Origin: a virus
Taxonomy: Duplodnaviria > Heunggongvirae > Uroviricota > Caudoviricetes
Strand: one strand, 5' to 3'
IMG/VR virus record: IMGVR_UViG_2690315994_000027
Span: 1-13,542 of that record
Length of the DNA stretch: 13,542 nucleotides
The notes beneath the pieces are model-generated. The model did no database searches and was not told the origin of the DNA. It saw nothing but the letters and a program-made list of their open reading frames with translations. Position numbers and translations under genes: made by a program. How positions within the stretch are numbered: position 1 is the first letter of the stretch; the number at the start of each line of letters is the position of its first letter. This document shows, piece by piece, positions 2,165 through 10,276 of this stretch.

Positions 2165-2353
2165 TCACGAGGACAGAAGTTTCTCGCAATTAAAATTTAT
2201 CAGCTTTACTTTCTGCTCTCTGGACACGCCTGCTTCTTTTTTCCCTGAGAGCATTTTTTCGCATTCTGATTTCGTTAATTTAGATTTTGAATATCTTGTC
2301 CAGTTAGTAGGAGTGCCACCTTCTTTTTCAATAGTGGCAGTAATTTTATACAT
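2165..2353 (-). CDS. Small basic hypothetical protein (62 aa), translationally coupled to lar (position of Rac ydaC)
   Basis: ATG at 2351-2353 lies inside the lar 3' end (ATGTATAA overlap) with GGAGG 5 nt upstream; the track's longer 86-aa version starts inside lar in another frame. Confidence 0.5.
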   Translation of the reverse strand: MYKITATIEKEGGTPTNWTRYSKSKLTKSECEKMLSGKKEAGVSREQKVKLINFNCEKLLSS

Positions 2354-6146: not shown

Positions 6147-6175
6147 GCCTGCACAGTGTGCAGGCTTTCTTTTTT
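6147..6175 (+). terminator. Plus-strand intrinsic terminator between recE and racC (no upstream plus-strand gene)
   Basis: Perfect 8-bp GC-rich stem GCCTGCAC 6147-6154 / GTGCAGGC 6158-6165, 3-nt loop, then TTTCTTTTTT 6166-6175. On the minus strand the hairpin is followed by TGAGTGAAG, so it is orientation-specific for the plus strand. Confidence 0.6.
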
Positions 6176-7081: not shown

Positions 7082-7125
7082 AAAAAGGGGCGGCAGGGCA
7101 GCCACGGAGTAGAACTGATGCCGCC
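7082..7125 (-). terminator. Possible weak terminator for leftward transcription (tL-like)
   Basis: On the minus strand: GGCGGCA ... 23-nt loop ... TGCCGCC then CC and T5 (plus A5 at 7082-7086). Long loop and CC spacer make it weak. Confidence 0.25.
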
Positions 7126-7250
7126 AAAGACTACACATAGCAATTGTCGTTATTTACAACCGGAGGCGCACTCCCACCATTTAAATTTAACAGACAAGAC
7201 CGACTCTTTATGAATACCGGAAATGCGCCTTCGTGTTGTGCGCCTGTCTT

Positions 7251-7691: not shown

Positions 7692-7865
7692 CTTTTTTCC
7701 CCTTAACGCCGGGTGGCGGAACGTTTTATCTACTGCGCTTTGTATCAATCAACAACTGCCGTCATGTTCGTATGCCTCAGGCTGGCTACTTAGCCCTGTT
7801 CAGTGGCTGGATAACTCGAGGAATTGTCCAGCCGTTCTCTGGTGGGGCGTTGTTTGGATATGCTT

Positions 7866-7894
7866 ATTAAACACAATACGTTTTCTTATGTCAA
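7866..7894 (-). promoter_or_regulatory. Predicted leftward early promoter (pL analogue)
   Basis: Minus strand: perfect -35 TTGACA (plus 7889-7894), 17-bp spacer, -10 TTTAAT (plus 7866-7871); overlapped by two copies of the operator-like motif. Confidence 0.5.
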
Positions 7895-7907
7895 CACGAA
7901 ATGTGTT
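7870..7907. promoter_or_regulatory. Two operator-like 15-bp sites (OL analogue), centres 23 bp apart
   Basis: AACACGAAATGTGTT at 7893-7907 (palindromic arms AACAC/GTGTT) and AACACAATACGTTTT at 7870-7884; same motif and spacing as at the rightward promoter. Confidence 0.45.
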
Positions 7908-7936
7908 TTGTGGTGGATGTCATATGATGATGGTAC

Positions 7937-7960
7937 AAAAAAGCCCGCTGATAGCGGGCT
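7937..7960 (-). terminator. Intrinsic terminator of the repressor gene
   Basis: Stem GCCCGCT 7943-7949 / AGCGGGC 7953-7959 with 3-nt loop; on the minus strand followed by T6 (plus A6 at 7937-7942); 32 nt downstream of the repressor stop. Confidence 0.7.
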
Positions 7961-7990
7961 GATTGGCATATTACTGTGATAGCAAGATCA

Positions 7991-8410
7991 TTACTCCGGT
8001 GGGGGATTATCTTTAAGCCTGCCTCTCAAATATTTTTCTACATACTCATCGATTTCTTTTAGCCGGACTTCAAATAGCTCAATCATTCGTTGTTGTTCTG
8101 AGCCCGGTAGCTGGTTAAACAACTCAAGAAGTTTTCGTTGGGATTCATTTAACCACAATTCAGAAGATTCCTGTTCTCCAAAGAGGAGCTCAGGAGGAGA
8201 TATGCCAAGTGCCTTTCCCAATACGACAGCGTCATGCACTCCAACATTTCTGCTGCCCGCCTCATAGTTACCTATACGCGATTGCGTCCATCCGCAGATT
8301 TCAGCAAGTTTTCCTTGAGATAAACCAAGCTTCTGCCTGCGCTCTTTAAGACGCATTGCAATTTTGTCATTGAGCCTACTAGCGGCAATTTTTTCGTTTT
8401 CTTTTTCCAT
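7991..8410 (-). CDS. Phage repressor, XRE/Cro-C1-type HTH, no S24 peptidase domain
   Basis: 139 aa; HTH segment LKERRQKLGLSQGKLAEICGWTQSRIGNYEAG; divergent from the Cro-like gene; no Ala-Gly / Ser...Lys autocleavage module recognisable in the C-terminal half. Confidence 0.85.
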   Translation of the reverse strand: MEKENEKIAASRLNDKIAMRLKERRQKLGLSQGKLAEICGWTQSRIGNYEAGSRNVGVHDAVVLGKALGISPPELLFGEQESSELWLNESQRKLLELFNQLPGSEQQRMIELFEVRLKEIDEYVEKYLRGRLKDNPPPE

Positions 8411-8421
8411 TGCATCCTTGT

Positions 8422-8436
8422 ATCACGAATCGTGAT
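8422..8436. promoter_or_regulatory. Perfect 15-bp palindrome ATCACGAATCGTGAT in the repressor leader
   Basis: 7-bp arms around a central A; 12 bp upstream of the repressor start codon; different sequence from the AACAC-type motif. Confidence 0.45.
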
Positions 8437-8444
8437 TTACATAA

Positions 8445-8488
8445 AACACAAAACAGCTTGACCATATAACACAAGATGTGTTTAAAAT
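8445..8488 (+). promoter_or_regulatory. Predicted rightward early promoter (pR analogue) with two operator-like sites (OR analogue)
   Basis: -35 TTGACC 8458-8463, 17-bp spacer, AT-rich -10 region 8481-8488 (TTTAAAAT); near-perfect palindrome AACACAAGATGTGTT 8468-8482 in the spacer and a weaker copy AACACAAAACAGCTT 8445-8459, centres 23 bp apart. Confidence 0.5.
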
Positions 8489-8506
8489 TGTCATCGGAGG
8501 TTTTCA

Positions 8507-8749
8507 ATGAACAAAATTTCAACATATCGAAAACAGCTTGGGCTGTCTCAAAGACAACTTGCTGTTCAGTTAGGGTGGATACAAAGCCGACTGGCAAATT
8601 ACGAAGCAAATTTTCGTACCCCTGGACTAGAGGAGTGCAGAAAAATTGTTTCTACCCTTAATCGGCTTGGCGCTCATTGTGGACTTGACGATGTATTCCC
8701 CCCAGACGGTAAGCATAGCGAAAACAGCATAGGAGCGGTTGATTCATGA
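8507..8749 (+). CDS. Cro-like HTH (XRE family) protein, 80 aa (YdaS-like position)
   Basis: HTH segment YRKQLGLSQRQLAVQLGWIQSRLANYE; GGAGG 6 nt upstream of the ATG; divergent from the repressor; stop overlaps the next gene start (ATGA). Confidence 0.8.
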   Translation: MNKISTYRKQLGLSQRQLAVQLGWIQSRLANYEANFRTPGLEECRKIVSTLNRLGAHCGLDDVFPPDGKHSENSIGAVDS

Positions 8750-9168
8750 AAATCAGGCATGAGCACATCGAATCAGTGTTGTTAGCCCTGGCAGCCGAAA
8801 AAGGGCAGGCGTGGGTCGCTAACGCAATTACTGAAGAATATCTGCGCCAGGGGGGCGGCGAATTGCCCCTTGTACCAGGCAAGGACTGGAACAATCAGCA
8901 GAATATCTATCACCGTTGGTTGAAAGGTGAAACGAAAGCGCAAAGGGAAAAAATTCAGAAACTGATCCCTGCGGTTCTGGCAATTCTTCCGCGCGAGCTG
9001 CGTCACCGACTCTGCATCTTCGATACCCTGGAACGCCGTGCATTACTGGCGGCGCAGGAAGCGTTGAGTACGGCAATTGATGCGCATGATGATGCAGTCC
9101 AGGCCGTTTACCGGAAAGCACATTTCAGCGGTGGTGGGTCGCCCGGTGATTCTGTGGTGGTGCATTGA
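8746..9168 (+). CDS. ydaT: YdaT-like protein (140 aa), positional and reported functional analogue of lambda CII
   Basis: MKIRHEHIESVLLALAAEKGQAWVANAITEEYLRQGGGELPLV...; length and sequence match my recollection of Rac YdaT; ATGA coupling to the Cro-like gene. Confidence 0.75.
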   Translation: MKIRHEHIESVLLALAAEKGQAWVANAITEEYLRQGGGELPLVPGKDWNNQQNIYHRWLKGETKAQREKIQKLIPAVLAILPRELRHRLCIFDTLERRALLAAQEALSTAIDAHDDAVQAVYRKAHFSGGGSPGDSVVVH

Positions 9169-9226
9169 AGGTGGGGAACTATGCCGAATCGTATTTATTC
9201 GGCATTGGAAGATGTGTTATGTGCGA

Positions 9227-9442
9227 TTACGATTTTTTACCTGTTGCGCATTCATACGCTTTTGTAAGTGCGCTTATGAGCCCTGGAACATTTGCTATAG
9301 GTATATTCACTGATTCAGCAATTCCATATTCTGGATCAGGACTATTAGGGCATTCGTCAACGGTGATTATGAGCGCGTCAATTTCTTCGGTGTATTCAAC
9401 TGTTATTTGAGATTGGTGGGGGGCGGCGATAAATGTTTGCAT
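9227..9442 (-). CDS. Hypothetical small acidic protein (71 aa, about 10 D/E versus 3 K/R), opposite strand to the flanking replication operon
   Basis: ATG at 9442 preceded by AGGAGGAAGG; fills the otherwise empty 290-bp gap between ydaT and the O-like gene; predicted own promoter at 9507-9536. Confidence 0.45.
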   Translation of the reverse strand: MQTFIAAPHQSQITVEYTEEIDALIITVDECPNSPDPEYGIAESVNIPIANVPGLISALTKAYECATGKKS

Positions 9443-9460
9443 CCTTCCTCCTAAGGTTAA

Positions 9461-10276
9461 GTGGTTGTTATGTCGGCACTACCTTACATGCAATTGTATA
9501 TAGCTGATTATCTGGCAGATACCATGCATTTGTCTACAGAAGAGCACGGCGCGTATTTGTTGCTGATGTTCAATTACTGGCAAACAGGAAAGCCAATACC
9601 CAAAAACAGGTTGGCAAAAATTGCCCGTCTGACTAACGAGCGATGGGTTGATGTTGAACCATCCTTGCGGGAGTTTTTTTGTGATAACGGCGACGAATGG
9701 ATGCATCTTCGGATTGAGGAAGATCTGGCATCTGTCAGAGAAAAATTAACCAAAAAATCAGCCGCAGGAAAAGCATCTGTTCAGGCCAGAAGAAGCAGAA
9801 AGGAAGCAGATGTTCAAACAAAACAAGAGAGAAATTTAACAGGTGTTCAAACAGATGTTGGAGTGGTGTTTGAACATGATGCCAACACAAAGGCAACTAA
9901 TAAAGATACAGATAAAGATCTAAAAACAGATCCCCCCCTAAATCCCCCCCGGGGGAATCGAGGTGTCAAAAAATTTGACCCTCTGGATATTTCTTTGCCG
10001 AACTGGATTTCTGTCTCGCTTTGGCGTGAGTGGGTTGAATTTCGCCAGGCATTGCGAAAACCGATTCGAACGGAGCAGGGCGCTAACGGGGCTATACGGG
10101 AACTGGAAAAATTCCGTCAGCAGGGTTTTACACCTGAGCAGGTGATTCGACACAGCATCGCCAATGAATACCAGGGCCTGTTCGCGCCGAAAGGTGTTCG
10201 GCCTGAGACGTTGCTCCGACAGGTTAACACCGTCTCGTTGCCGGACAGTGCGATCCCGCCAGGCTTCAGGGGGTAA
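9461..10276 (+). CDS. Replication initiation protein, lambda O-like / DUF1376 (YdaU-like)
   Basis: 271 aa; position immediately upstream of the DnaC-like gene; central low-complexity linker containing iteron-like repeats; start may be GTG 9461 or ATG 9470 (both have weak RBS). Confidence 0.75.
   Translation: MVVMSALPYMQLYIADYLADTMHLSTEEHGAYLLLMFNYWQTGKPIPKNRLAKIARLTNERWVDVEPSLREFFCDNGDEWMHLRIEEDLASVREKLTKKSAAGKASVQARRSRKEADVQTKQERNLTGVQTDVGVVFEHDANTKATNKDTDKDLKTDPPLNPPRGNRGVKKFDPLDISLPNWISVSLWREWVEFRQALRKPIRTEQGANGAIRELEKFRQQGFTPEQVIRHSIANEYQGLFAPKGVRPETLLRQVNTVSLPDSAIPPGFRG
9507..9536 (-). promoter_or_regulatory. Predicted minus-strand promoter inside the 5' end of the O-like gene (position of lambda pO/oop)
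   Basis: Minus strand: -35 TAGACA (plus 9531-9536), 18-bp spacer, -10 GATAAT (plus 9507-9512). Confidence 0.35.
9809..9930. other. Candidate replication origin inside the O-like gene: iteron-like repeats plus an AT-rich stretch
   Basis: TGTTCAAACA at 9811-9820 and 9844-9853, inverted copy TGTTTGAACA at 9867-9876, followed by the AT-rich segment 9885-9930; analogous to lambda ori within gene O. Confidence 0.4.

Follow-up and report, generated by a model that had tools for sequence, protein, structure and literature searches.

In phage lambda, the three sites of the right operator lie between the divergent repressor and cro genes, with the annotated centers of OR3, OR2, and OR1 at -19, -42, and -66 from the cI ATG and a spacing of 23 + 24 bp. 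The lambda operator consensus is ATCAC-N5-GTGAT. OR2 reads T-AACAC-CGTGC-GTGTT-G, and the left half of OR3 (TATCAC) and the right half of OR1 (GTGATA) are of the ATCAC type. Of the three sites, the one proximal to the repressor gene is the first that Cro occupies and the last that CI occupies (summarized in PMC8630535, PMC10448788). A second described system is the PaaR2/YdaS/YdaT module of prophage CP-933P from E. coli O157:H7. It consists of a short HTH repressor gene, a divergent Cro-like gene, and ydaT, with operators over PRM and PR in an intergenic region of ~97 bp and a YdaT box at the ydaS/ydaT junction (PMC8630535, PMC9986795). Experiments on this module showed a leaderless repressor mRNA; the CI-like and Cro-like proteins leave footprints that overlap across the region between the divergent genes, and YdaS, the Cro-like protein, binds first on the PRM side (PMC8630535). 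In the Qin prophage, the PR-like and the PL-like promoter were each reported to have three operators (PMC10448788, PMC3441716), and its DicA/DicC pair was described as a bistable switch of comparable architecture (PMC10448788). Finally, among phages with VT1-Sakai-type immunity, mEp213 has three CAC-N5-GTG sites that are 23-24 bp apart, and OR3 of mEpX1 is ATCACGTTGCGTGTT, which lies 11 nt from the ATG and is followed by TACATT. The literature on H-19B yielded nothing usable on the CAC-N5-GTG operator class.

We compared these systems with a Rac-family prophage that is contained in a stretch of 13,542 nucleotides of viral DNA (the window, always meant here at its full length). The prophage carries intR, xisR, ralR/RalA, recT, recE, kil, DicF, ydaT, ydaU, and ydaV, and its immunity region is found at 99% identity or more in at least 153 complete E. 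coli genomes, O157:H7 strains included. The repressor gene (7991-8410, minus strand) encodes a protein of 139 aa with an N-terminal HTH_3 domain and a DicA-like C-terminal domain, and the divergent Cro-like gene (8507-8749, plus strand) encodes an HTH_3 protein of 80 aa. As in lambda, the right-operator sites lie between these divergent genes, with centers at -19, -42, and -65 from the repressor ATG, and in both cases the proximal site, with GTGATA, adjoins or overlaps the -10 element of the maintenance promoter (a predicted one in the window). Unlike in lambda, the spacing is 23 + 23 bp, the sites are best described as 15-mers, and the OR2-equivalent is a half-site only. The window proteins are, moreover, distant from CI (phmmer E ~2e-3 to the lambda repressor), and the 139-aa repressor lacks the S24 autocleavage domain of CI.

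The gene order and the layout of the intergenic region and YdaT box described above for CP-933P are shared with the window. However, CP-933P has four operator sites, which are 18-bp repeats with the consensus GTTTAGTAA, its repressor gene lies in an operon with a toxin-antitoxin pair, and the match between EDL933 and the window is confined to the ydaT segment. The window repressor resembles Qin DicA in being short and non-cleavable and in its C-terminal region, and it likewise faces a divergent Cro-like gene (DicC in Qin). As in Qin, the DicF RNA, which Rfam placed at 7088-7139 (minus strand), is located downstream of a predicted PL, and in combination with the DicA-like repressor this RNA makes the early-left arm of the Rac-family prophage Qin-like. 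The window has its HTH type and operator class in common with mEp213 and mEpX1; unlike the window, these phages have a CI with an S24/LexA-like C-terminal domain (by annotation) and a lambda-type CII, not YdaT.

Several other features of the window were recorded on the way. Rfam matched the RalA antitoxin sRNA (2169-2347, plus strand) and, near the left end, the SraC/RyeA-SdsR/RyeB pair (463-607, both strands). Between recE and the next minus-strand ORF, a 19-bp palindrome, GCCTGCACAGTGTGCAGGC (6147-6165), is followed by TTTCTTTTTT, and the two look like a plus-strand intrinsic terminator that would be antisense to the early-left genes. The ydaU (DUF1376) region at 9165-10276 differs in length from the O157:H7 copy (L108), which is annotated as frameshifted; in the window, the DUF1376 ORF has a GTG start at 9461, after a separate ORF of 81 aa.

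The palindrome within a family of probable operator sites

The site under study is ATCACGAATCGTGAT, a 15-mer at 8422-8436 with one center base and a 7-bp arm on either side. The first-pass annotation had reported a perfect 15-bp palindrome 12 bp upstream of the repressor start codon, and both statements were borne out. Since the repressor ORF occupies 7991-8410 on the minus strand, with its ATG at 8410, the gap between palindrome and ATG is 11 nt, or 12 bp when counted to the A, and the center of the palindrome is 19 bp from that A. The local order in the window is CAT, TGCATCCTTGT, ATCACGAATCGTGAT, TTACAT. The exact sequence is single copy in the window, and a search of the whole window allowing up to three mismatches returned no further copies. 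Palindromes of the 7+1+7 kind numbered 2 in the 13.5-kb window against 0.72 expected from shuffles, and ~0.005 would be expected in the 96-bp intergenic region (82 positions / 4^7). A bare palindrome of this kind is not rare at the scale of the window, and we therefore built our case on motif, phasing, and conservation.

A repeat search placed ATCACGAATCGTGAT in register with both AACAC palindromes of the window, those at 7893 and 8468, as members of one family with the common 15-bp form A-N-CAC-N5-GTG-N-T. The differences between ATCACGAATCGTGAT and the AACAC sites were confined to positions 2 and 14, where they are symmetric (A>T and T>A). Exact copies of A[AT]CAC-N5-GTG[AT]T numbered three in the window against 0.06 expected, three or more were obtained in none of 2000 shuffles, and all copies lie within the two intergenic regions beside the repressor gene. 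When one mismatch to AWCAC-N5-GTGWT was allowed, the search of the window returned the same three sites plus AACACAATACGTTTT at 7870 and no others. The palindrome had been described as unrelated to the AACAC-type operator motif, which is contradicted by its having the same geometry, the same CAC-N5-GTG core, and the same 23-bp phase as the AACAC sites. Nor does the difference in the half-sites set it apart as a distinct class, since the lambda right operator itself combines both variants, AACAC and ATCAC.

The phasing extends to the whole operator map, in which sites are given without strand. Right-operator sites start at 8422, 8445, and 8468 (23 + 23 bp), and left-operator sites start at 7870 and 7893 (23 bp). 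The OR2-equivalent AACACAAAACAGCTT (8445-8459; center 42 bp from the ATG) was placed by this 23-bp phasing, overlaps the -35 element of PR, and meets the consensus in its AACAC half (8445-8449) only. The OR1-equivalent AACACAAGATGTGTT (8468-8482) is the cro-proximal palindrome and lies within the spacer of the predicted PR (8458-8486, plus strand), which is made up of a -35 element TTGACC (8458-8463), a 17-nt spacer, and a -10 element TTTAAA (8481-8486); the layout in relatives is alike (TTGACT-17-TTTAAT). On the left side, the motif search identified OL1 AACACGAAATGTGTT (7893-7907) and OL2 AACACAATACGTTTT (7870-7884). Both overlap the predicted PL (7866-7894, minus strand; -35 TTGACA at 7889-7894, 17 nt, -10 TTTAAT at 7866-7871), and OL2 falls within its spacer. 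A simple sigma-70 consensus scan called none of PRM, PR, and PL; as its rules were too strict for elements such as TTTAAA and TACAAG, the promoters were read by eye and from relatives. An exact 11-nt direct repeat, AAAACAGCTTG, is present at 8450-8460 (OR2 / PR -35) and at 8530-8540 (inside cro) and may be due to chance.

Altogether, the repeat, motif, and conservation searches point to the palindrome as the OR3-type (OR3-equivalent) site of a right operator that is tripartite in the manner of lambda and belongs to a lambdoid, Rac-family prophage with a DicA/DicC-like immunity cassette. We put the probability of this reading at roughly 0.85.

Conservation of the proximal site and the predicted repressor maintenance promoter

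Relatives with 57-68% repressor identity were taken from phage records (L001-L003), from one genome per species (L005-L011), and from IMG/VR (L088-L105, L190-L269). The Klebsiella phage L004 and records L012-L025 were rejected as operator comparators, as they share the C-terminal domain alone and have another HTH. In relatives that share the HTH type, all but L010, the proximal site is NNCAC-N5-GTGNT, with 11-14 nt between it and the repressor ATG and with TAAAAT-like bases after it. They also carry a cro-proximal palindrome (AACAC..GTGTT, GACAC..GTGTC, or TTCAC..GTGAG) and a middle site, which is degenerate. A proximal site of this form and distance is likewise present in mEp213 and mEpX1. 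In one relative, L010, the proximal site is missing. Position 2, position 14, or both set the proximal site of every lineage apart from the cro-proximal consensus: the site is A-T-CAC..GTG-A-T in the window, G-C-CAC..GTG-G-T in the GACAC lineages, and AACAC..GTG-G-T in the other AACAC lineages. The window palindrome is the local version of a family-wide habit. A fourth site, for which the window has no equivalent, is present in Citrobacter-type relatives (L001, L005, L006, L098-L105, L190-L205); it reads CTCAC-N5-GTGTT and lies 84 nt from the repressor ATG, over the ribosome-binding region of cro.

The IMG/VR sample contains many near-identical copies of the immunity region, together with a lineage in which 20-21 of 102 positions are different. 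Variation among 28 haplotypes affects 35 of the 96 intergenic positions. None of these fall on the 25 half-site positions of OR1, the AACAC half of OR2, and OR3 (hypergeometric P = 1.2e-6), and none on the 12 positions of ATCACG/CGTGAT (P = 0.003), both P values being rough because the haplotypes are related. The center of the palindrome does vary (GATTC, GAATC, or GCATC), and variation in the OR1-equivalent is confined to the central N5. Invariant arms around a variable center are the pattern expected of an operator, and one that we read as purifying selection. Conservation in related prophages, to which the first-pass annotation had drawn attention, is thus found at two depths: the proximal site is kept down to ~57% repressor identity, and its arms are invariant in the 28 haplotypes.

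The conserved position of the palindrome relative to the ATG coincides with a promoter-like element. Its repressor-proximal arm contributes the TG, as well as the first T of the hexamer, to a TGnTAAAA-like extended -10, which in the window is predicted at 8417-8425 (minus strand) as TG (8425-8424), A, and TACAAG (8422-8417). After TACAAG, 6 nt precede the A of the ATG, which is the predicted +1, and the repressor strand reads CGTGAT ACAAG GATGCA ATG. At the corresponding PRM positions, 55 distinct relatives show TG-n-T-A-A-A-A-n, in which -10 to -8 are A-rich; the A at -11 is present in 55/55 and was not imposed by the search pattern. In many relatives TTGAGx is found 17 nt upstream. The window hexamer TACAAG is weak, without the T at -7, and was negative in the consensus scan; in some close haplotypes it is replaced by TAAAAG.

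Given this extended -10 geometry, the repressor mRNA would probably be leaderless, as in lambda (GGTGATAGATTTAACGTATG). The palindrome had been assigned to the repressor leader, a label that is probably wrong, because the conserved -10 geometry puts it in the promoter spacer (-26 to -12). It would then be transcribed solely by read-through from an upstream PRE-like promoter. An AAGGA Shine-Dalgarno-like motif between the palindrome and the ATG would fit a leadered mRNA; this motif is polymorphic (AAGAA in some haplotypes) and could serve PRE-type transcripts.

As the palindrome overlaps the predicted maintenance promoter, from -26 to -12 and with its proximal arm supplying part of the extended -10, a protein bound to it should keep RNA polymerase out and thereby stop repressor synthesis. 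The symmetric exchange at positions 2 and 14 (T/A for A/T) would most likely confer another affinity order than that of OR1, OR2, and OL. One option is that the repressor binds weakly to the palindrome, so that negative autoregulation would set in only at high repressor concentration. In addition or instead, Cro may prefer the palindrome and would then shut off repressor synthesis after induction. We further infer that repressor bound at OR2 (center at -42) would activate the maintenance promoter, as it does in lambda.

Alternative readings of the palindrome

The YdaT/CII-like protein had been proposed as one candidate binder of the palindrome. Characterized YdaT proteins recognize (A/T)TGATT-N6-AATCAA, an 18-bp inverted repeat at the ydaS/ydaT junction (PMC9986795, PMC11879457). 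In the window, a match to this published motif, TTGATTCATGAAAATCAG, is found at 8739-8756, where it overlaps the ydaT start codon. It agrees with the published YdaT box at 11/12 positions and with the Rac box ATGATTCATGAAAATCAA at 16/18 (PMC11879457), and the window YdaT is distant from the solved YdaT proteins (E ~1e-6 to 1e-7; 1.7e-6 to 8bt1). TTGATTCATGAAAATCAG is therefore likely to be the cognate site of the YdaT/CII-like protein, separate from the palindrome. A YdaT operator at the palindrome itself was rejected, as a 5 + 5 + 5 layout with ATCAC half-sites misfits the published motif and the box is at 8739-8756.

More broadly, the palindrome might be the operator of some other regulator, be it the YdaT/CII-like protein or another phage or host factor, that acts independently of the CI/Cro system. 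The symmetric substitution in both half-sites does look deliberate, degenerate sites between racR and ydaS are bound by Rac YdaT (PMC11879457), and GTGATT-TACATA-AAACAC (8432-8449) agrees with TTGATT-N6-AATCAA at 9/12 positions. We nevertheless consider this very improbable, because the geometry, core, and phase of the palindrome are those of the CI/Cro operators, and the proximal site is kept in relatives with unrelated downstream genes. With respect to YdaT in particular, a near-perfect box is located at the expected place, and the half-sites and the 6 + 6 + 6 layout that this protein recognizes do not match a 5 + 5 + 5 site. To our knowledge, ATCACGAATCGTGAT contains no known host-factor consensus.

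Similarly slim are the odds that the palindrome forms a hairpin in the 5' leader of the repressor transcript and acts at the RNA level, on translation or stability. Such a hairpin would be situated directly upstream of the AAGGA motif and the ATG, it would be present in transcripts from an upstream PRE-like promoter, and conserved arms with a variable center would also fit a stem and loop. However, the minus strand of 8400-8470 folds at -11.9 kcal/mol (z = -0.43), which is no better than shuffles, and no Rfam match was found at 7700-8800; on this unremarkable fold and the lack of an Rfam family we discarded the hairpin as the main explanation. In addition, neither the Shine-Dalgarno motif nor the ATG would be sequestered, the same motif occurs in the PR and PL promoter spacers, where a leader hairpin is impossible, and by the conserved geometry, the palindrome should lie upstream of the start of the main transcript. 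Least probable of all is a functionless palindrome that arose by chance or as a relic of recombination. Although ~0.7 palindromes of the 7+1+7 kind are expected in a window of this size, a chance origin would not account for a motif, phase, and position that are kept in distant relatives, or for arms that are invariant against 35 variable intergenic positions.

Binding proteins and immunity cassettes

For an OR3-type operator, the likely binders are the 139-aa repressor and the 80-aa Cro-like protein, which are paralogous HTH proteins. Their recognition helices are near-identical (GWTQSRIGNYEAG in the repressor and GWIQSRLANYEAN in the Cro-like protein, with QSR common to both). We therefore expect each of the two to read CAC-N5-GTG, which makes a third protein unnecessary. 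The first-pass annotation had concluded that the palindrome implies a second DNA-binding protein, a step that becomes superfluous when the paralogous CI-like and Cro-like proteins suffice by virtue of their shared recognition helix. What stands of that proposal is that the palindrome is, almost certainly to judge by its sequence, an operator controlling repressor expression, and that the Cro-like protein is a reasonable and perhaps preferential predicted binder; the distinct operator class, the extra regulator, and the YdaT candidate, which has its own box elsewhere, fall away. Across lineages, we found no simple link between the residue before QSR and operator position 2 that could serve as a recognition code. 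An inverted repeat of 26 nt (8306-8331 versus 8535-8560, 81% complementary) is, as we read it, the DNA trace of the repressor/cro HTH paralogy.

The repressor scored 57.2 bits against the NCBIfam DicA model (cut-off 101) over residues 15-133, and it is thus DicA-like in architecture and no DicA equivalog. Its nearest solved relatives are HTH domains only. The C-terminal 55 residues, LFNQLPxSEQxRMIDxFxxRLKEIDEYVEKYLRGR, are kept beside unrelated N-terminal HTH domains in L004 and L012-L025, which marks the repressor as modular. A domain search found no S24 peptidase domain in the 139-aa protein, and induction therefore presumably proceeds by an antirepressor or another route, as for DicA and Rem. 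A terminator scan detected an intrinsic-terminator-like hairpin (7942-7960, minus strand) downstream of the repressor gene.

Comparison of the window with a second type of prophage (the pPE4 type; L002, L100, L109-L188) shows how these elements are exchanged. Homology between the two breaks at 7862/7863, just outside PL/OL, and at 8506/8507, at the cro ATG. The exchanged cassette accordingly comprises OL, the repressor gene, and OR (7863-8506), with cro outside it. The pPE4-type Cro protein is identical to that of the window, and the pPE4-type repressor has 62% identity to that of the window and the helix GWSGSSRIANYE. The pPE4-type sites are TTCAC..GTGAG at OR1 and CTCAC..GTGAG at OL, versus AACAC..GTGTT in the window type; the pPE4-type proximal site is TTCAC-N5-GTGAT, so that NTCAC-N5-GTGAT is common to both cassettes. 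Two Cro sub-lineages were each found with both cassettes. Where repressors with the helix core of the window (GWTQSRIGNYE) are accompanied by a Cro with R-QSR, the proximal site is AACAC..GTGGT. From these comparisons, the proximal site follows Cro, and OR1 and OL follow the repressor. Over cro-ydaT and the cassette flanks, L002 (PP818812.1; record name 'Actinobacillus phage vB_Apl-pPE4') shares 95-99% identity with Rac-family prophage DNA of E. coli, and Actinobacillus looks doubtful as its host.

This pattern suggests a proximal site that is tuned to, or preferred by, Cro. The pattern is in line with lambda, where OR3 is the first site that Cro fills, and with the behavior of YdaS in CP-933P. 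We give such a preference roughly even odds, because only about two independent comparisons, on two cassette types, bear on it and shared ancestry may confound them. A stronger version, about which we are more doubtful, is that the palindrome is a Cro-dedicated operator. In that case one Cro would serve two or more heteroimmune sets of repressor and operators through TCAC-N5-GTGAT, which each cassette would keep over its repressor promoter, and the repressor of the window, with its preference for AACAC, would bind the palindrome poorly.

The palindrome thereby gains a concrete role, as the predicted off-switch of repressor synthesis, and it is an ordinary rather than a novel kind of site for which an extra regulator is unnecessary. 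The analysis also maps, by prediction, the full set of operators and promoters of an immunity type that is present in at least 153 complete E. coli genomes. Solely the identical Cro across two heteroimmune cassettes goes beyond routine annotation. If the palindrome is Cro-dedicated, a co-resident prophage of the TTCAC type could cross-repress the repressor promoter of the window prophage. And if the proximal operator lets one Cro work with both cassettes, the specificity of immunity could evolve and recombine independently of the switch's anti-repressor arm.
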